Below are positions 1 through 37,821 of a stretch of DNA of 61,160 bases, piece after piece (within the stretch, counting starts at the first letter, position 1; each line of letters begins with the position of its first letter). The position numbers and the translations under genes are program-made. The notes below the pieces were generated by a model, which had not been told where the DNA came from, did not search any database, and was given only the letters and a program-made list of their open reading frames with translations. The DNA is from an uncultured Planctomycetia bacterium (GTDB lineage: Bacteria; Omnitrophota; Gorgyraeia; Tantalellales; Tantalellaceae): positions 1 through 61,160 of the forward strand of contig CAYVIW010000004.1 in the NCBI GenBank assembly GCA_964451815.1, written 5' to 3'.

Positions 1-110
1 AAAACACCTGCATGAAACCTGGTGAAGGGATATTCGGTTGTCAAAAAGCGCTCAGCGAACTATTGCGACACAGTCTCGCAGGGGAAATCGTCCGTCCCCG
101 CAAGCACATG
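1..110. repeat. Partial, degenerate third copy of the GC-rich core shared by the palindromic elements at 30.8 kb and 37.5 kb (cut by the window edge)
   Basis: 75-101 ctcgcaggggaaatcgtccgtccccgc equals the reverse complement of 37557-37583 at 25/27 positions (hand count). Weaker block similarity lies upstream (gatatt, ggttg, agcgaac). Confidence 0.45.
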
Positions 111-332: not shown

Positions 333-1181
333 ATGCGTAAATTAATAGATAAAAGCCTTTATTTCGTGACGGGAGAGGAATATTCCTCTCCGCGTGGCTC
401 CGTCCAGGTGGTCGCCTCCGCTATAGAAGGCGGTGTGGATATCGTTCAGATGAGAGAGAAGGCCAAGCCCCGGAGTGAACTCGTGTCTCTCGGGAAAAAC
501 CTGGCCGGCATATGCCGCGCCGCCGGCGTGACCTTTATTGTCAACGACGATCCTTTTCTGGCCGCTGAGATCGGTGCAGACGGTGTGCATCTCGGGCAGG
601 AAGATATGGTAAAATATCCCGTCGATGAGGCGCGGTCTGTTTTGGGGAAAGACGCCGTGATAGGCGTGTCTACGCACTCGTTAAGTGAATTCAATGAGGC
701 GGGCGCCAAAGATGTCGATTATATAGCTTTTGGGCCTGTTTTTCCTACCGGGACCAAGGATTACTATATAGGAGTGGATGACGTTCCCGCCGCTCTGGAA
801 GCGTCAAAAAAGCCCGTGGTATTGATAGGGGGGATAGACTTTTCCAATGTCGATAGCCTGATAGCGCTGGGCGCGAGAAATATAGCGGTCATAAGGGCCA
901 TAGCGGGAGCGGCTGACGTAAAAGAAGCTGCCGGAGAGCTCAGCGGGAAGATCAAGGGGCTGGATAGAACAGGAGAGACACTGGTCATAAAGGTGAACGG
1001 AAAAGACCATGTTATCAGGACAGGCACTGATCTTCCCGCGTTCTTGAACGCCAGTGGACTCGACAAGAGCAGGATAGTAATTGAGTATAACCGGAGGATC
1101 GTCCCGACGGAAAGATGGCATGAAGTATCTTTTGCGAGCGGCGATGTTCTTGAGATAGTGAGCTTTGTCGGCGGAGGATGA
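333..1181 (+). CDS. thiE: Thiamine-phosphate synthase ThiE fused to a C-terminal ThiS sulfur-carrier domain
   Basis: ThiE motifs ([39 protein letters not shown]) cover ~210 aa. A ~66-aa ThiS-like tail follows (LVIKVNGK...EIVSFVGGG-stop) with a free Gly-Gly terminus. Confidence 0.85.
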
Positions 1182-1213
1182 TCGGCGGAAGGTCAATAAG
1201 GGCGGGGTACTTT

Positions 1214-1987
1214 ATGGAAGACATATTAAGAATAGGCGGGAAAGAAATAAAGAGCAGGTTCTTTGTGGGCACCGGGAAGTTCGCGAAAAAAGGTCTCATA
1301 AGGGAAGTGCTTGAGGCCTCGGGCGCGGATGTGGTGACCGTGGCGTTGAGAAGGGTAGACATGGAGCATGAAGCCGAGAATGTGCTCGAACATATTCCCG
1401 AAAAGTGTATTCTCATGACCAATACCTCCGGGGCCAGGAATGCCGAAGAAGCTGTAAGGATAGCCCGCATAGCCAAACAGGCGGGATGCGGGAACTGGAT
1501 CAAGATAGAGGTGATCCCCGATAACAGGTACCTTATGCCGGACAATGCCGAGACCCTGGAGGCTGTCCGGATACTTTCCGGAGAGGGTTTTACGGTATTG
1601 CCTTATATGACACCCGACCTGGTATATGCCCGCAGGATGGAGGAGGCCGGGGCGGCGGCCGTTATGCCCCTGGGCTCTCCAATAGGCAGTAACAGAGGCT
1701 TCAGGACCGAAGAGATAGTTAAGATAATGGCGAAAGAGATCGAAGTCCCGGTCATAGTCGATGCCGGCATAGGCCAGCCTTCGGACGCCGCCAAATGTAT
1801 GGAGACGGGATGCGACGCGGTGCTTGTCAATACGGCTCTCGCTACCGCCGCCGACCCGGTCAGTATGGCTAAGGCTTTCAGTATGGCCGTGGAGGCGGGG
1901 CGGTTAGCTTATCTTTCGGGTATCGGTCAGACCGGGGAAGAGGCGAACGCGTCCTCTCCTCTTACGGGGTTTTTGAGGGACGAATAA
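1214..1987 (+). CDS. thiG: Thiazole synthase ThiG
   Basis: N-terminus [23 protein letters not shown] and the full length match ThiG. The ORF opens at 1178 (ATGA overlap with the upstream stop), but ATG 1214 fits homolog N-termini better. Confidence 0.85.
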
Positions 1988-1988
1988 T

Positions 1989-3170
1989 ATGAAAAAAAGT
2001 TTTCATGATATTTACCGCCATTACAGTGATATCGACGCCTCTCTTATATACGAGCACATAGACAGGCAGCAGGTAATGAAAGCGATAGCGTCGGACGAGC
2101 TTTCCTTAAAGGGGCTTCTTGTGCTTCTTTCTCCTGAAGGTGAAAAATTCATCGAGGCGCTTGCCCACAGGGCTCATGAACTTACCCTGCTTAACTTCGG
2201 GAAAGTGATACATCTATATACGCCCATGTATCTTTCCAACTACTGTGATAACGAGTGCGCGTATTGCGGGTTCAAGCGCGACAACGCCATAGAAAGAAGA
2301 ACACTCGGCGTGGACGAGGTCAGGGCCGAGGCCGATTTTATAGCCCGGAAAGGTTTTGAGAACATCCTGATACTCACCGGCGGTTCCAGAAAGAAAGCCC
2401 CGCTGAAATACATAAAAGATTGTGTGAAAGCGATAAGGGGAAAGTTCAGCTCTGTATCCATAGAGGTATATGAACTGACAAAAGACGAATATAAGGAACT
2501 CATAGATGAGGGGGTGGACGGCCTTACGGTCTACCAGGAGGTTTACGACGAGGAAATTTACGGCAAGGTACATATCTCGGGGCCGAAAAGAGATTATATG
2601 TTCCGTATGGATGCCCCCGAAAGGGCTCTTTCCGCCGGGATGAGGACGGTCAGCATAGGAGCGCTTCTTGGCCTGGGGGATTGGAGGAAAGAGGCCTTCT
2701 TTACGGCCCTTCACGCGAGGTATCTGCAGGACAAGTTCCCGGCCTCTGAGATAAGTGTTTCTGTTCCGAGGATAAGGCCTCAGGTTTCCTGTTTTAAGCC
2801 GGCATGCCGGGTGAGCGATAAGAATCTGGTCCAGATAATAACAGCTCTCCGGATATTTCTGCCTAGAGTGGGCATTAATCTTTCCACAAGGGAAGGCGCT
2901 TTTCTGCGCAACCATCTTCTGCCCCTCGGCATAACCAGGATGTCGGCGGGTTCCACCACAAAGGTCGGCGGGCACACCGTCTGCGACGCCGGGTTCGCGT
3001 CGGAGCAGTTCGAGATATTTGACACAAGAGAGCTTGAGGAAATAAAGGAGATGCTTTCCGACAGAGGGTATCAGCCGGTTCTCAAGGACTGGGTCAACTT
3101 CTGGGACAGCATCGGTTCGACATTAGAGTGCGGAGGCGTAAAAGCTGAGCCTGGAAGGATAAAAATATGA
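1989..3170 (+). CDS. thiH: 2-iminoacetate synthase ThiH (radical SAM)
   Basis: Radical-SAM CDNECAYCGF motif, ThiH/HydG-like length, and thi operon context. Confidence 0.8.
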   Translation: MKKSFHDIYRHYSDIDASLIYEHIDRQQVMKAIASDELSLKGLLVLLSPEGEKFIEALAHRAHELTLLNFGKVIHLYTPMYLSNYCDNECAYCGFKRDNAIERRTLGVDEVRAEADFIARKGFENILILTGGSRKKAPLKYIKDCVKAIRGKFSSVSIEVYELTKDEYKELIDEGVDGLTVYQEVYDEEIYGKVHISGPKRDYMFRMDAPERALSAGMRTVSIGALLGLGDWRKEAFFTALHARYLQDKFPASEISVSVPRIRPQVSCFKPACRVSDKNLVQIITALRIFLPRVGINLSTREGAFLRNHLLPLGITRMSAGSTTKVGGHTVCDAGFASEQFEIFDTRELEEIKEMLSDRGYQPVLKDWVNFWDSIGSTLECGGVKAEPGRIKI

Positions 3171-3784
3171 ACGCGTTCGAGAGAGCGTTACTCGGGCAAT
3201 TCGGTGAAGAGAACCTTACGAAGATCCAGAATACGCGTATAGGGATAGCGGGGGCCGGGGGGCTCGGTTCGAACTGCGCTTCTAATCTGGTAAGATGCGG
3301 GTTCAGGAAAATAAAGATAGCCGATTTTGACATTGTGGACCACTCCAACCTCAACAGACAGTTCTATTTCGCCGACCAGGTCGGCAGGAAAAAGGTAGAG
3401 GTTTTGAGAGAGAATCTGCTTAAGATAAACCCTGATGCTGAAATAGATATCTTCGACGGCAGGATAGAAAAAGAGAACTCGGGCAGTGTCTTCGAGGGTT
3501 TTGATATACTGGTCGAGGCTTTTGACAGAGCCGAGAACAAGAAAGTTTTTGTCGAAAGTGTCATAGGCAGGACCTCTCTTCTGGTCTCGGCTTCGGGCCT
3601 TGCCGGGGTGGGGTATGCCGACGAGATCAGGACCCATCGCATCAGGGACGATTTTGTGGTAGTGGGAGACCTCAGGAGCGACTATCTTAAAACCCCGCCC
3701 ATATCGCCGAGAGTGAACGTAGCCGCGGCTAAACAGGCCGATGTTATACTCGACTATGTATTAAATGGAACAATAGGGGAATAG
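3167..3784 (+). CDS. thiF: ThiF/MoeB-type sulfur-carrier adenylyltransferase (short form)
   Basis: GIAGAGGLGSN nucleotide-binding loop and FDIVDHSNLNRQ. ATGA overlap with thiH. Confidence 0.8.
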   Translation: MNAFERALLGQFGEENLTKIQNTRIGIAGAGGLGSNCASNLVRCGFRKIKIADFDIVDHSNLNRQFYFADQVGRKKVEVLRENLLKINPDAEIDIFDGRIEKENSGSVFEGFDILVEAFDRAENKKVFVESVIGRTSLLVSASGLAGVGYADEIRTHRIRDDFVVVGDLRSDYLKTPPISPRVNVAAAKQADVILDYVLNGTIGE

Positions 3785-3791
3785 TTCTGCT

Positions 3792-4787
3792 ATGAGGGCA
3801 ATATGCTCGTTTTCCGGAGGACTTGACAGTATACTAGCGGTCAGCTTGATGCGGCAGCAGGGTATAGAGGTCGAGGCGGTGCATTTCGATAACGGATTCG
3901 GAGGTTGCGGTGAACGTGACAGTAACAGACAGCCGATACGTGATAGAGCCGCCCGCCTGGGGGTTAAGATCACTTTTATCGATGTAAGCGAAGACCTTGT
4001 GCATATCCTGAAGGACCCGAAATACGGATTCGGCAAGAACATGAACCCCTGTATGGACTGCCACCTTCTTTTTTTTAAAAAATGCGGCGAATATATGCGT
4101 AAAGCAGGGGCTTCGTTCATTGTTACGGGAGAGGTCGTCGGAGAAAGGCCCATGTCTCAGAGGAAGTGGGCCATTGAAGAAATATCCGCCAGCAGCGGCC
4201 TGGATGGCCTGATATTGAGGCCTTTATCGGCCAGGCTTATGAAGGTCACGATACCCGAGAAAAAAGGATGGGTTGACCGTGAGAAGCTTCTTGCGATAAG
4301 CGGACGCTCGCGCAAGCCTCAGATGGAGCTTGCGAAGGAATTGGGAATAGATTTTTATCCAAACGCCGCCGGAGGATGTCTTTTGACCGAAAAGGACTTT
4401 TCCAGGAAGGTCCGCGATCTTATGGAGAATAAGCCCGGCTTTGATATGACGGATGTTGACCTGTTGAAGTCAGGCAGACACTTCCGTATTTCCCGTACGG
4501 CCAAGCTTATCCTTGGAAGAGACGAAAAAGAGAACGAGACACTTGTGAAAAACATGCCCGGGAAGACGTATTTTATGACCATAGAGGTTCCCGGTCCCGT
4601 GGGTGTTATAACGGGACCTTTGGTCGGAGAAGAGGAGAAACTTGTTTCGCGTATCATTTCCGCGTATAGTGACATACACCCGGGAGAGGAAATGACCATA
4701 TCTCGTAATACGGCTAAAGGCGGGAAGGCTGAGATAATCAAGGTCAAAGCTGTATCCAGGAAGGACGTAAAAAAATACCTGGTTTAG
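3792..4787 (+). CDS. PP-loop ATP pyrophosphatase, ThiI/MnmA-like thiolation enzyme family (no THUMP or rhodanese domain seen)
   Basis: SFSGGLDS PP-loop at the N-terminus, plus NPCMDCH and GGC cysteine motifs and GEVVGERPMSQ. Positioned between thiF and nifS. Confidence 0.6.
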   Translation: MRAICSFSGGLDSILAVSLMRQQGIEVEAVHFDNGFGGCGERDSNRQPIRDRAARLGVKITFIDVSEDLVHILKDPKYGFGKNMNPCMDCHLLFFKKCGEYMRKAGASFIVTGEVVGERPMSQRKWAIEEISASSGLDGLILRPLSARLMKVTIPEKKGWVDREKLLAISGRSRKPQMELAKELGIDFYPNAAGGCLLTEKDFSRKVRDLMENKPGFDMTDVDLLKSGRHFRISRTAKLILGRDEKENETLVKNMPGKTYFMTIEVPGPVGVITGPLVGEEEKLVSRIISAYSDIHPGEEMTISRNTAKGGKAEIIKVKAVSRKDVKKYLV

Positions 4788-7140: not shown

Positions 7141-7267
7141 TATAGCTGTAAGTGTTTTTATCTGTCCCCCGTCGGGGTCTTGAGGTCAAGGTCTATAAAG
7201 GGGGATGAATTTCTCATAGTTTACATATCATCAGGCTGTGAGAAGTGCAAAGAATAAAGGAGGCGAC

Positions 7268-9793: not shown

Positions 9794-10369
9794 ATGGCGA
9801 GTTTGAAGGGAACGCAGACAGAGAAAAATCTTTTGGCCGCTTTTGCCGGTGAATCACAGGCCAGGAACCGGTATACCTATTTCGCGGGCGTGGCGAAAAA
9901 AGCTGGCTATGAGCAGATAGCGGCGGTATTTCTGGAGACGGCCGATAATGAAAAGGAACACGCCAAGATGTTCTTTAAGCATCTTGAAGGCGGCGAAGTC
10001 GAGATAACGGCTGCGTATCCGGCCGGCAAGATAGGGAATACCTCCGAGAACCTCGAGGCGGCGGCAGAAGGCGAAAAAATGGAATGGACCGCCATATACA
10101 AAGACTTCGAGAGCGTCGCGCGCGAGGAAGGATTTGAAGATGTGGCCGAGACTTTCAAGGAGATAGCGAAAGTCGAATCATGGCATGAAAAAAGGTACAG
10201 GTCTCTTCTCGCGAATGTAGAAGAAAGCAAAGTGTTCAAGAAAGGCTCCGCCGTAAAATGGCATTGCAGGAATTGCGGGTATGTGCATGAGGGCGAAGAG
10301 GCTCCCAAAGTATGCCCGGCATGTAAACACCCGCAGGCTCATTACGAATTGCTCGCGGAGAACTATTGA
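9794..10369 (+). CDS. rbr: Rubrerythrin
   Basis: TEKNLLAAFAGESQARNRY diiron domain plus a C-terminal rubredoxin-like CRNCGY...CPACKHP. ATG 9794 has a GGAG SD. The ORF-track start at 9758 overlaps dfx. Confidence 0.9.
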   Translation: MASLKGTQTEKNLLAAFAGESQARNRYTYFAGVAKKAGYEQIAAVFLETADNEKEHAKMFFKHLEGGEVEITAAYPAGKIGNTSENLEAAAEGEKMEWTAIYKDFESVAREEGFEDVAETFKEIAKVESWHEKRYRSLLANVEESKVFKKGSAVKWHCRNCGYVHEGEEAPKVCPACKHPQAHYELLAENY

Positions 10370-10381
10370 CAGGAGGGAGTT

Positions 10382-10861
10382 ATGGAGAAGAGATTTTCCG
10401 CCTGTGAGCTTATAGAGATGGGCGTACGTATAGAGGAGAACGGCAGGGACTTTTATCTGGCTCTTTGCGGAATGGCCCCGACACCGGAGGTCGAGTCCGC
10501 CTTCAGGGATCTCGCTCAAGCGGAAGAAGACCACATAAAGTTCTTTCGCGGGCTTTCCGGCCAGAGCTGCCAATTTGAGCCTATTGATGTATTCCCCGAG
10601 GAATATTTCGCGTATATACGGGCGCTGGCCGATCAATACATATTTACACGCAGTGATAGCGGCCGGGAAACGGCGGAGAACACGCAAACGTACGGTAAGG
10701 CCATAGACCTGGGCATAAAACTCGAAAAGGATTCCATCCTTTTCTACCAGGAGATGGGAAAGATACTTACGGAAAAGGACAGGGCGGTTCTCGACAAGGT
10801 GATAGATGAAGAGAGATCTCATCTCAGCAGGCTTGTGGAGATGAAAAAGACCACCGTGTAA
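10382..10861 (+). CDS. Ferritin-like/rubrerythrin-family diiron protein (no rubredoxin domain)
   Basis: Two E...ExxH pairs (IEENG / AEEDH and LEKDS / EERSH) in a four-helix-bundle-length protein. Confidence 0.65.
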   Translation: MEKRFSACELIEMGVRIEENGRDFYLALCGMAPTPEVESAFRDLAQAEEDHIKFFRGLSGQSCQFEPIDVFPEEYFAYIRALADQYIFTRSDSGRETAENTQTYGKAIDLGIKLEKDSILFYQEMGKILTEKDRAVLDKVIDEERSHLSRLVEMKKTTV

Positions 10862-30486: not shown

Positions 30487-30786
30487 ATGGACGAACATGA
30501 TCTTATAAGGATATTTAAAGCTCTGGCGGACAAGACCAGACAGGATATCCTGGAGCTTATATCCCGGCAGGAGATGAACGTTACGGATATATGTTCGGAG
30601 TTCCATGTGTCCCAGCCCACGGTGTCGCATCATCTACACATATTGAAAGATTGCGGCCTCGTGGATTACCGCAAGGAGGGCAAGAAAATATACTATTACA
30701 TAAAACAGGAAGTAATGGATGACGCTTTCGGCAGGGTCGTCAAGAAGATGCGGGTAAGGATAGTCAGAAAAAGTGAGGATGGATAG
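30487..30786 (+). CDS. ArsR/SmtB-family winged-helix regulator
   Basis: The segment MNVTDICSEFHVSQPTVSHHLHILKDCGLV is typical of the family. The CVC metal-site motif is absent. Confidence 0.8.
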   Translation: MDEHDLIRIFKALADKTRQDILELISRQEMNVTDICSEFHVSQPTVSHHLHILKDCGLVDYRKEGKKIYYYIKQEVMDDAFGRVVKKMRVRIVRKSEDG

Positions 30787-30789
30787 GGA

Positions 30790-31103
30790 TAAAGAAACAT
30801 ATTTTGGGTATTTTTTACAGTACTTTGTAGACTTGCTTTCTATCATGTTCTGACCCCTGTATGAGTATAAGGGTAAACAGATGTATGTTTGAGCGGGGCA
30901 CCGTGAAGTGAGCAAGCATGGTCCCGCCCCGCGATATCCTGGTGAGGGCGGGTTGCGAACGGAACGTCGAGCGAAGATATCACGCCGGGAGATCGAGCGT
31001 CCCCGCGAGAATATGCATCTGTTTACCCTTATTTGTTGCCTGCATAAACGTTGAATTGTGCAGAAAATACCCAAAATATGTTACAGTACTTGAATAGGAA
31101 CCA
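30790..31103. repeat. MITE-like nested-palindrome element, copy A
   Basis: Perfect 19-bp outer inverted repeat (30796-30814 / 31064-31082) and perfect 15-bp inner inverted repeat (30869-30883 / 31016-31030). The core 30893-31006 is homologous to the reverse complement of 37557-37671. Confidence 0.7.
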
Positions 31104-35466: not shown

Positions 35467-37455
35467 ATGTCTTTTTCCGTAAAATGTTTCAGGGATAACG
35501 GCGCTATAGCTTCAAAGCTCGAAACCTACGAGACCCGCCTTGAGCAGATAGAAATGGTACAGGCCGTGGAGGAAGCCATAGCCTCGGGAAGTGATCTTAT
35601 AGTCGAAGCGGGTCCGGGTGTCGGGAAAAGCCTCGCGTATCTTGTCCCTTTCATACACTGGGCTGTCACCGAAGGCAAACGAGTAATGGTATCCACATAT
35701 ACCAAGGCTCTTCAGAACCAGCTTTTTGTAAAAGACCTGCCTTTTCTCAAAGAAGCCCTTGGGCTTGATCTCAGATATGTTCTTTGCATGGGATCCGATA
35801 ATTATGTCTGCCTTAAGAAAGCTTATAAGACCTGTCAGGGTGACCTTTTCGAGGGAAAATATCATAAGAGACAGGCGGACAGGATATTGGAATGGATAAA
35901 CACTACCGATACGGGTCTTGTTTCTGATATGGAGGTTGTTCCGGATCAGCGGGTATGGGATAACTTCAAGCGCGACAGTGACCTGTGCGGGGGCAGGAAA
36001 TGTCCGCATTTTGAAGATTGTTTTTACATGACCTCTCGCAGGGAGCAGGCGAAAGCTCATGTGCTTGTGGTAAATCACGCGCTTTTTTTCACATCTCTCG
36101 GGTCTGAGACGAATTTGTTCGGGGATGTTGACGCCCTTGTTCTTGATGAGGCCCATACATTGGAAGATGTCGCGACCAACTATTTTGGTAAAACGTTCTC
36201 CTCATCAGGTATAGTGTACCTTGTTGATAAGATAAGGTCTTTTCTCGAAGGGGACACGCCGCGCCCGGGTGAGGAGGAGTATCCCGCCAGCGAGGCGGAA
36301 AACGTCAAAAAAGGATGCTCTGATCTCATTGCCGCCTCTGAGTCTTTTTTCGGCAGCGCCGAGGAAAAGCTCTTTGAAAAGGATTCGGCGGTAGAGTTCT
36401 CTCCTGAGACGCTTTCTTGCGACGATGTTATGCTCTGCGCGCAAAAACTTCTATCGACGCTTCTTACTATGGCCGGTAAGTCGCGGGAGAGCGCTTTGGC
36501 GGAAACCGTCGGCTCTTACGCTGCAAGGGTCAAAGGCCTGTGTGAGTCGATCTCCGCGATATTCGATCCCCCGAAAAGCGGATGGGTTTTCTGGGCCCAG
36601 GCTCGCACCTCAAGGTCGGCCCGTAATATCGCTTTTCATGCGTCCCCTGTGGATATAAGGGACAGGATGAGAAAAGAGATTTTCGAAAACTTTTCACCTG
36701 TAGTGCTCGCGTCGGCGACGCTCTCGGTTTCCGGCAGGGCCGGGGACCTTACCTTCATAAAGGAAAGGCTGGGTATGGACGAGGCCATGGACCTTGTGGT
36801 GGATTCACCTTTTGATTACGGCAAGAACGTTCTTGTATACCTCCCTCACGGCGCGGCCGACCCCAGTAACGATAGCGGGGCGTTCAGGCGCTACCTTAAG
36901 GACAACATCATCTCCATTTACGATGTCATGGGCGGGAGGATATTCGCTCTCTTTACCAGTTATAATATGCTGGATTCGGTTGCCGCGGGTATAGCCGCCG
37001 ACAGGCCGGATATATATATCCTCAAGCAGGGGGATATGCCCAGATATGTGCTTCTTGACGTGTTTAAAAAGAACAACAGCAGTATGCTGCTGGGGACCAC
37101 CACGTTCTGGCAGGGGGTGGATGTTCCGGGCAGCGCGCTTGAATGTGTTATAATTACAAAACTTCCTTTCGGAGTTCCTTCGGACCCGGTGAACGCCGCC
37201 CGTATACGCGCCCTGCGCGAAAAGGGACATAATCCGTTCCGGGAATACCAGCTTCCCCAGGCTATGATAATGTTCAAACAGGGGTTCGGCAGGCTTATCA
37301 GAAGCCGGTCCGATAGAGGGGTCTTCGCGGTACTTGATCCCCGGGTCCGCACCCGCGAATACGGCAGAAAGTTCCTTGAATATGTTCCCGAATGCCGCAT
37401 AACCGGGGACCTGGACGAGGTCAGGGATTTCTTTATTTCTCCCCGAACGGAATAG
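35467..37455 (+). CDS. dinG: DinG/XPD-family Fe-S DNA helicase
   Basis: AGPGVGKS Walker A, the DEAH box (LVLDEAHTLED), and a four-Cys cluster region (CMGSDNYVC ... CGGRKCPHFEDC). Confidence 0.85.
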   Translation: MSFSVKCFRDNGAIASKLETYETRLEQIEMVQAVEEAIASGSDLIVEAGPGVGKSLAYLVPFIHWAVTEGKRVMVSTYTKALQNQLFVKDLPFLKEALGLDLRYVLCMGSDNYVCLKKAYKTCQGDLFEGKYHKRQADRILEWINTTDTGLVSDMEVVPDQRVWDNFKRDSDLCGGRKCPHFEDCFYMTSRREQAKAHVLVVNHALFFTSLGSETNLFGDVDALVLDEAHTLEDVATNYFGKTFSSSGIVYLVDKIRSFLEGDTPRPGEEEYPASEAENVKKGCSDLIAASESFFGSAEEKLFEKDSAVEFSPETLSCDDVMLCAQKLLSTLLTMAGKSRESALAETVGSYAARVKGLCESISAIFDPPKSGWVFWAQARTSRSARNIAFHASPVDIRDRMRKEIFENFSPVVLASATLSVSGRAGDLTFIKERLGMDEAMDLVVDSPFDYGKNVLVYLPHGAADPSNDSGAFRRYLKDNIISIYDVMGGRIFALFTSYNMLDSVAAGIAADRPDIYILKQGDMPRYVLLDVFKKNNSSMLLGTTTFWQGVDVPGSALECVIITKLPFGVPSDPVNAARIRALREKGHNPFREYQLPQAMIMFKQGFGRLIRSRSDRGVFAVLDPRVRTREYGRKFLEYVPECRITGDLDEVRDFFISPRTE

Positions 37456-37786
37456 ATAGTGTAACATATTCCGGGCATTCTTCGCGCAATTCACCATTTA
37501 CAGCAGAAATAAGTCTAAACGGCGGTATATCTCGCCCTTGGCTTTCCTGGACCCAGGCGGGGACGTACGATTTCCCCAGCGAGGAAATCGTACTCAACGT
37601 TCCGCTCGCAACCCGCCTTAGCCTTAATATCGCGAGGCGGGACCATGCTTGCTCGCTTCACGGTGCCCCGCCTGGGTCCAGGAAAGCCAAGGGCGAAACA
37701 TGCCGTTGTTAGCATAGAGGGCAGTAAGTGGACCGCTATAACACTATCAAAAAATACCCGGAATATGTTACACTATCTGAGGAACC
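37454..37786. repeat. MITE-like nested-palindrome element, copy B (best preserved)
   Basis: Perfect 22-bp terminal inverted repeat (37454-37475 / 37757-37778), perfect 30-bp inner inverted repeat (37533-37562 / 37666-37695), and an 11-bp hairpin (37565-37575 / 37583-37593). Confidence 0.75.
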
Positions 37787-37792
37787 GACGCC

Positions 37793-37821
37793 TTGCAATT
37801 ATACTATTATTATTGTATATT
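37793..37821 (+). promoter_or_regulatory. Putative promoter of the MoxR/Bat operon
   Basis: TTGCAA at 37793-37798, a 17-nt spacer, then TATATT at 37816-37821. Confidence 0.45.

Follow-up and report, generated by a model that had tools for sequence, protein, structure and literature searches.

Results

Copy A at the arsR-NYN junction

The window, by which we mean the whole 61,160-nucleotide stretch of DNA analysed here, carries between an arsR gene and a NYN gene a non-coding element, copy A, that is composed of the following parts.

30783..30786, no strand: left target-site duplication ATAG (possibly 5 bp, ATAGG), from the empty site of L015 and the window flanks
30787..31093, plus strand: copy A, the whole non-coding insert of 306-307 bp, missing from the spacers of L015 and L021
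30794..30819, plus strand: left terminal inverted repeat (TIR), GAAACATATTTTGGGTATTTTTTACA, from inverted-repeat and TIR searches
30867..30898, plus strand: 5' arm of the closing helix, from the inverted repeat and folding
30899..31000, plus strand: conserved core, a long-range rod with purine internal loops and the hairpins P2 and P4
30923-30952, plus strand: P2 hairpin, part of the core
about 30969-30996, plus strand: degenerate P4 region, part of the core
31001..31032, plus strand: 3' arm of the closing helix, from the inverted repeat and folding
31059..31084, plus strand: right TIR, from inverted-repeat and TIR searches
31094..31097, no strand: right target-site duplication ATAG, from the window letters compared with L015

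Copy A is a true insertion: an empty site is present in a close relative, and ATAG is duplicated at the ends of the element. The relative L015 has the same gene order as the window and a DUF6873 protein 81% identical to that of the window; its arsR-NYN spacer without copy A is 47 bp long, and that of L021, likewise syntenic, is 58 bp long. The empty site of L015 reads gaggatgtATAGgaaccatg; its spacer runs ...gaggatgtATAGgaaccatgttgtgc, and the window has ...ggatggATAG, the 307-bp element and then ATAGgaaccatgttgtgc. At the junction itself, ...GTATAG/GAACC... of L015 corresponds to ATAG, 307 bp and a second ATAG in the window, and the stop codon of arsR, TAG (30784-30786), lies inside the left duplication. 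Copy A probably entered between arsR and the NYN gene after the split from the nearest sampled relative, with duplication of the 4 bp ATAG. All near-identical assemblies (L001-L007) carry the element. A strain variant of copy A in L007 reveals two polymorphisms in the population, C30928T, which gives U-G in P2 on the sense strand, and C30968T, which returns the position to the family consensus.

The two inverted repeats described in the initial annotation proved to be perfect and longer than first seen. The outer one (30796-30814 / 31064-31082) extends to 24 nt at 92%, and the inner one (30869-30883 / 31016-31030) extends to 32 nt (30867-30898 / 31001-31032) at 84%; all three transition mismatches in the inner repeat are G-T on the plus strand. 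The covariance model of the family matches copy A at 30868-31031 with 142 bits.

Copy B and its ortholog

A second element, copy B, lies in opposite orientation downstream.

37449-37452 and 37781-37784: GGAA flanking copy B
37453..37780, minus strand: copy B, 328 bp, core on the minus strand, from repeats, folding and the covariance model
37454-37482 and 37750-37778: TIRs, an outer pair of 29 nt at 93%
37518-37562 and 37666-37710: arms of the closing helix
37534-37557 and 37671-37694: symmetric arm extension, with equivalents in the ortholog B' in L015
37563-37665, minus strand: core

Copies A and B are paralogs of the same element in inverted orientation. The similarity of their cores, first read directly from the letters as two blocks matching at 43/45 and 23/25, was recovered by BLAST between the plus-strand core of A and the minus-strand core of B (81.9% over 116 nt, E = 9e-25). 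The proposed TIR consensus TGTAACATATTyyGGGyATT likewise stood, occurring four times in the window against 0.07 expected; a 34-nt core block occurs twice against none expected. The modules of A and B fold with -85 and -131 kcal/mol, corresponding to z = -7.4 and -13.4 relative to shuffled sequences.

The ortholog of copy B, B', is found in L015 at ~10085-10402, and GGAA flanks both B and B'. The more distant syntenic relative L021 is empty at the sites of both A and B; its helicase-MoxR spacer, which lacks copy B, is too diverged for base-level confirmation. Gene order and orientation between the two sites are the same in the window, in L015 (B' only) and in L021 (neither copy). Since gene order is unchanged in these three genomes, A and B bound no composite transposon and no invertible 6.3-kb segment, and this candidate was ruled out.

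The DinG-like helicase gene next to copy B ends within the element: its stop codon TAG coincides with bases 1-3 of copy B (37453-37455), and in L015 the stop is TAA within the TIR at 10087-10089 (GCGTAACA). The C-terminal residues of the helicase differ from those of the relative without the element.

Copies, search and distribution

At least 14 copies in unrelated gene contexts were recovered, 12 of them full and two partial. The full copies, confirmed with nhmmer and a covariance model, are A, B, B', D, E, F, G, H, J, K, L and M, and a half-copy, I, was also recovered by these searches and aligned. Copy C is a 3' remnant at the very beginning of the window, seen by eye and as a weak nhmmer or BLAST match; the covariance model misses it, and its 5' half has been severed from the remnant by an insertion sequence (IS).

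1..77, plus strand: right end of another, multi-copy IS (terminal repeat ...ATTGCGACACAGTCTC), which has entered copy C at its P4 loop
78..123, plus strand: remnant of copy C, comprising the 3' half of the P4 hairpin and the 3' arm of the closing helix (CCCCGCAAGCACATGCCGGCGCTTCCCC), a weak match identified by eye

Most copies were found through alignment of a spurious open reading frame that crosses the core (RGTVKRASMVPPRDI..AGCERNVEDDFLAGEIVRPR). This alignment retrieved 15 "proteins" in a protein search, and copies E-M were located on the contigs that encode them; the sample is biased, as a copy whose frame is closed escapes such a search. Just 13 such ORFs were obtained in an exhaustive profile search of 1.84 billion representative proteins, which points to a family that is scarce in public sequence data. 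A six-frame ORF query joined by X linkers gave no match, although a true target (P0121) was in the database; the same frame submitted as a proper alignment was successful.

Nucleotide searches added little. The pattern GGGGCNNNNNNAAGNGAGCAAGNNNNNNCCCGCC, which is too strict (B' has GGAG), had no matches in viral, genome and metagenome collections. A later pattern scan of genomes yielded one true copy (D, in L023) and one chance match, that of metagenomes gave chance matches only (L025-L028), and further scans of the viral collection gave no copy. BLAST against plasmids and phages gave no match, and among the loci compared neither the covariance model (R1) nor a TIR search (about 275 kb) detected further copies.

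Copy D sits in a metagenome-assembled genome labelled Planctomycetia, whereas NCBI assigns homologs of a flanking protein to Candidatus Omnitrophota; the lineage is accordingly placed in the PVC group, probably in Omnitrophota. The JGI samples that yielded the contigs of the window also yielded most of the copies, and these probably belong to one genome. At least 11 copies appear to reside in the apparent genome of the window, and the others in a few related uncultured bacteria. The family is small, lineage-restricted and undescribed; a literature search on repeats or non-coding RNA of Omnitrophota returned nothing relevant.

The outer shell of the element is preserved unevenly. TIR pairs are significant against shuffled sequences in A, B, B', F and K; the other full copies (D, E, G, H, J, L and M) have weak pairs or none, with degenerate remnants visible by eye in J, G and M. 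In D, E, G and H, where TIRs are undetectable, the cores are still within a few percent of the consensus.

Fold and conservation of the core

The consensus structure was derived with RNAalifold from a MAFFT alignment of 10 copies that was not fitted to any structure. It consists of a 30-bp closing helix, a long-range rod, the P2 hairpin capping the rod and a second hairpin, P4. The rod is built of the pairs CACCGU/ACGnUG, GC/GC and GCAA/UUGC, between which lie the purine loops GAA/GGA and GA/GA. The core of ~105 nt is almost invariant and, closed by the ~30-bp helix, forms a module of ~165 nt. The two substitutions by which A departs from the otherwise invariant rod (C to T at 30909 and G to A at 30959) are a compensatory pair: columns 44 and 94 of the alignment are CG in nine sequences and UA in one. 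Copies K and L have a different hairpin at the position of P2. The alternative hairpin ACCGTG/CATGGT is invariant in the aligned DNA and competes with the rod; RNAalifold prefers the long-range helix. In the ORF products P0133 and P0135 the residues ASTVP imply a T-to-C change, which would convert a G-U pair of ACCGTG/CATGGT into G-C.

The comparison of the orthologs B and B' separates the core from its surroundings. Outside the P2 loop, 82 of 84 core positions are identical (97.6%); identity is 63% in the P2 loop, 73-74% in the arms, 71-74% in the spacers and 77-90% in the TIRs, and fourfold-degenerate sites of four flanking genes are 67-79% identical in the same comparison. Among paralogs, the core rod is 93-97% identical versus 51-59% for the arms. 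The excess of core identity over arms, spacers (about 73%) and fourfold sites indicates that the core is constrained in situ, and the earlier argument that simple decay of a repeat would not produce such a pattern holds. In these orthologous sequences purifying constraint on the core is shown, and the arms have changed at about the neutral rate yet stayed paired.

The module does not correspond to a known RNA family: copies A, B, D, K, L and M had no match in Rfam 15 (4227 families) even at E<=10, and a tRNA/tmRNA search found none.

The closing helix

The consensus 5' arm of the closing helix in 12 copies is GGGnAAAGaCCGGTATGnnCnCGCGGGG. According to the initial annotation, the stems of A and B were unrelated, one whole helix having been replaced by another. 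This argument falls with the computed alignments, in which the stems are homologous: MAFFT and BLAST align the 3' arm, spacer and TIR of A (31021-31088) with the outer arm, spacer and TIR of B (37520-37457) at 73.5%. The arm of A is nearest to that of M (27/33 identical), and the M arm in turn corresponds to the outer portion of the arms of B' and B. Copies B and B' possess a stem of the A/M type plus 22-24 nt more in each arm, adjoining GGGG/CCCC; the earlier comparison had set the A stem against this extra block of B, that is, against a non-homologous stem segment. Judged from the alignments, the difference between the A and B stems is compensatory turnover combined with a symmetric extension in the B lineage, which may have arisen by template switching or by the nested insertion of a unit made of stem and core.

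What did survive of the earlier claim is that pairing is kept while sequence changes: both partners vary in 24 of the 30 pairs, and 95.3% of the cells of the alignment pair. None of 500 shuffles reached the observed values, and pairing falls to 39-47% when the partner is slid by 1-3 columns. Copies E, F and J have perfect arms of 26-31 bp. Flips of a pair are of the transition type in 25 cases versus 51 others, the 1:2 ratio expected at saturation, and do not discriminate between the possible causes. The covariation is statistically strong, and selection on structure is not its sole possible cause.

Genomic context of the copies

The neighbours of the copies (thi, glnA, carB, a GGDEF protein, rnpA/dnaA, cspA, OsmC, GT87) have no common functional theme, which is typical of a mobile repeat and not of a riboswitch. 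Nine of 12 independent insertions are oriented like the downstream gene, and six copies occupy divergent intergenic regions, where they precede the promoter of the neighbour.

Near-consensus sigma-70 promoters (11/12 positions) facing the downstream gene are located 67-75 nt past the module in F, H, J and L (L038 ~10215-10245, L032 ~10222-10250, L034 ~7222-7250 and L036 ~847-875), just outside the point at which the right end of the element is expected. Another promoter-like site (37793-37821) lies 13 nt past copy B. These positions suggest that the element prefers insertion just upstream of promoters. A promoter-like TTGACA (about 146-151) is found directly past the remnant of copy C. This remnant is followed by a TPP riboswitch (Rfam RF00059, 57 bits) at 183-298, upstream of the thi operon (333-4787).

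The sequence next to the ends may reflect a target-site preference. In four independent insertions (A, B/B', K and M), GGAA(C) or GAACC adjoins one end of the element (window 31098-31102 and 37781-37785; flanks in L036 and L041).

Two neighbourhoods deserve mention in their own right. Copy J is situated between dnaA and rnpA (L034 6986-7147, L035 6291-6452), a spacer in which the replication origin is often found; the dnaA call is split into two short pieces in L034 and is intact in L035. The cold-shock gene 3' of copy L is preceded by a sub-threshold match to the cspA thermoregulator 5' UTR (L037 847-1207, 48.9 bits versus a gathering threshold of 78).

A second insertion sequence in the P4 loop

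The IS that interrupts copy C has the terminal repeat GAGACTGTGTCGCAAT, and its junction with the P4 loop of this copy is CTCGCA/G. The first 77 bases of the window had been a candidate for a diverged core of copy C; this was ruled out, as they are the end of this other IS. The same IS end occupies the same P4 position in copy I (L029 1-48) and in strain variants recorded as the ORF products P0129 and P0131. In total, the P4 loop carries this IS in at least three copies, namely C, I and a strain variant of E, and the IS end also occurs at L008 1-103. Every assembly of the copy C locus breaks at the IS. It looks as if this second IS targets the P4 hairpin of the core.

Discussion

The finding is real and beyond chance: the copies form a small new family of MITE-like elements whose core is constrained and closed by a hairpin. 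We consider it probable that copy A itself is a MITE-like non-autonomous TIR transposon carrying a structured single-strand module. The copies are small and non-coding (306-328 bp), bear terminal inverted repeats (24 nt at 92% in A, 29 nt at 93% in B) and are dispersed in multiple copies; for A both a target duplication and an empty site are seen, and B has GGAA on both sides. In all these respects, including the presence/absence polymorphism between relatives, the intergenic location, the ability of the whole element to fold into a long hairpin and the fact that some copies abut or supply stop codons and promoters, they resemble bacterial MITEs of ~300 bp. Examples of the latter are Correia/CREE of Neisseria, ERIC/IRU and RU-1/2/3 of enterobacteria, RUP and MITEAba12 (PMC3184786, PMC2229807). 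They differ from MITEs in their interior, which is more than neutral filler: TIRs, spacers and arms decay or turn over around an asymmetric core of ~105 nt that is conserved at 93-97%. The core persists even in copies whose TIRs can no longer be recognised, and the family has no known parent IS. No transposase, reverse transcriptase or RAYT gene was found in the 61-kb window, nor was an autonomous partner IS sharing the TIRs found there or in about 275 kb of compared loci; the ends expected on such a partner are TCAGATAGTGTAACATATTCCGGGCATT. A DDE-type transposase supplied in trans would move the element by its TIRs.

Two conventional readings of the locus fare poorly. The initial annotation had raised the possibility that the stems act as bidirectional terminators, and intrinsic terminators or stabilisers of mRNA 3' ends would be in line with the very stable hairpins (-85 and -131 kcal/mol) and with the position of both A and B between co-directional genes. 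But no T-run follows either arm on either strand, the terminator scan is empty on the stems, the hairpins enclose a structured and conserved loop of ~105 nt that terminators do not need, the site of A corresponds to a 47-bp intra-operon spacer in L015, and many copies lie upstream of promoters in divergent regions. We therefore regard this role as very improbable. A small protein, encoded by the ORF ...RGTVKRASMVPPRDI..AGCERNVEDDFLAGEIVRPR... that several public assemblies annotate over the core, is the least credible of all explanations. The frame is called in 15 clusters as a "hypothetical protein", but an ORF search can retrieve only copies in which it is open, and in copy A it contains an in-frame TGA (AAG TGA). 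The block GGGGCACCGTGAAGCGAGCAAGCATGGTCCC has no synonymous variation in the 10-copy alignment except for the change that creates the A stop codon, and B' adds one non-synonymous difference to it; moreover, the starts and the N- and C-termini are translated variable palindromic arms, and no Pfam domain is found. The JGI and NCBI records in question (P0121-P0138) carry this spurious core ORF as "hypothetical protein".

A REPIN- or IS200/IS605-like single-stranded DNA element, with the hairpin-closed module as the relevant unit, folding during replication and recognised by HUH/Y1 (RAYT-type) proteins or otherwise at the DNA level with no RNA involved, would also keep pairing together with strand asymmetry as a top-strand substrate, and the modules have no associated promoter. 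The precise landing of another IS in the P4 loop of at least three copies implies that the hairpin is recognised as DNA; REPs are likewise targets of ISs (PMC1525189), and REPINs, too, preserve hairpin pairing (PMC3116915). REP, BIME and REPIN elements, which depend on RAYT transposases (PMC3116915, PMC3333891, PMC2817692), share with our family their dispersal as extragenic palindromes with preserved pairing that are targeted by specific insertion sequences. They are, however, 20-40 nt (REP) or about 100 nt (REPIN) long, with no large conserved loop, no TIRs and no duplication. The insertion of A includes a TIR shell and a 4-bp duplication, a DDE signature, whereas Y1/HUH elements have no TIRs and make no duplication; the window contains neither a RAYT nor a Y1 gene; and the loop is a large, invariant, asymmetric core of 105 nt with purine internal loops, unlike REP units of 20-40 nt. 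On this evidence, a purely REPIN-like or IS200/IS605-like nature of the element is unlikely.

Still less likely, in our judgement, is the absence of any function, with arms matched by quasipalindrome template switching or arm-to-arm conversion and the core kept uniform by gene conversion of a selfish repeat. Quasipalindrome template-switch mutagenesis has reportedly been studied in E. coli, from Ripley's model to work of the Lovett laboratory; it is documented mostly for short arms and short loops. It would explain why the arms diverge at a neutral rate yet remain complementary and the symmetric block of 22-24 nt in B and B', but it does not explain the conservation of the core. The perfect arms of 26-31 bp in E, F and J and the lack of a transition excess among pair flips (25 versus 51) are in keeping with this alternative. 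The core consensus is the same (93-97%) across samples and species (K, L, M and B') whose neutral sites are far more diverged, and as the core is shared across species, homogenisation within a genome cannot account for its conservation. The variable P2 loop between invariant blocks points to patchy constraint and not to conversion by tracts, and compensatory changes occur inside the non-palindromic core. Gene conversion among copies could nonetheless contribute a part of the conservation seen across copies.

We return to the MITE-like carrier and to the state in which its module would act, which is presumably that of a folded single strand. A role as RNA is given slight preference over single-stranded DNA, and pure mutational symmetry without function comes third. 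If the element is MITE-like, the chance that the module acts as RNA falls a little short of even; single-stranded DNA is a possible but weaker candidate, and selfish persistence with no further function is rather improbable. In the closing helix, G-U pairs on the sense strand outnumber A-C by 11:3 (about 15:8 with B and B' included), and the sense strand folds better than the antisense strand in 12 of 12 copies, by -7.7 kcal/mol on average; this advantage comes mostly from the shared core, so the copies are not 12 independent observations. The strain variant C30928T gives U-G on the sense strand as well. Taken together, this strand signal is weak. Tandem G-A loops such as those conserved here are typical of RNA. 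The RNA reading is weakened because the promoter scan found no site that recurs at one position within the module or ahead of it and because six copies lie in divergent regions, where read-through is not expected.

Under the RNA reading, the transcript would most likely arise from read-through or flanking transcription. The long helix would serve as a clamp or as a site of double-strand-specific processing, and the core would be a protein-binding three-way junction formed by the rod with its tandem G-A loops, P2 and P4. The symmetry of the helix, including the 22-24-nt extension of B, would be kept at least partly by DNA template switching; the neutral rate of the arms and the block added symmetrically to both arms of B speak against stepwise compensatory selection. 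Stable structured RNAs with a long terminal helix for processing or protein binding are represented by RNase III-processed precursors and Y-RNA-like RNAs. The module shares with these RNAs a variable long closing helix and a conserved multi-branched core with purine-rich internal loops; in contrast to them, it is multi-copy and transposon-borne and has no Rfam match and no promoter. It is conceivable, though on balance doubtful, that the module represents a new class of functional structured RNA or ssDNA-folded element that is carried by a transposon and then kept by its host or by the family of elements, for example as an RNP scaffold released by double-strand-specific processing or as a cis-acting cofactor of an unrecognised transposition system.

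The IS in the P4 loop resembles IS1397 and ISPpu9, insertion sequences that target REP hairpins (PMC1525189, PMC12288879). In practical terms, the element carries a false "hypothetical protein" in public annotations, and the IS in its P4 loop is a point at which assemblies break. The family also offers a natural test of whether a helix is kept up by selection or by template-switch repair, as paralogs, an orthologous pair and local neutral sites can all be compared. If the core is functional, it would be a structured nucleic-acid motif not described before, spread by a transposon in an uncultured lineage of which little is known, and the family would exemplify in nature how a mobile element can carry a folded module to different places in a genome.
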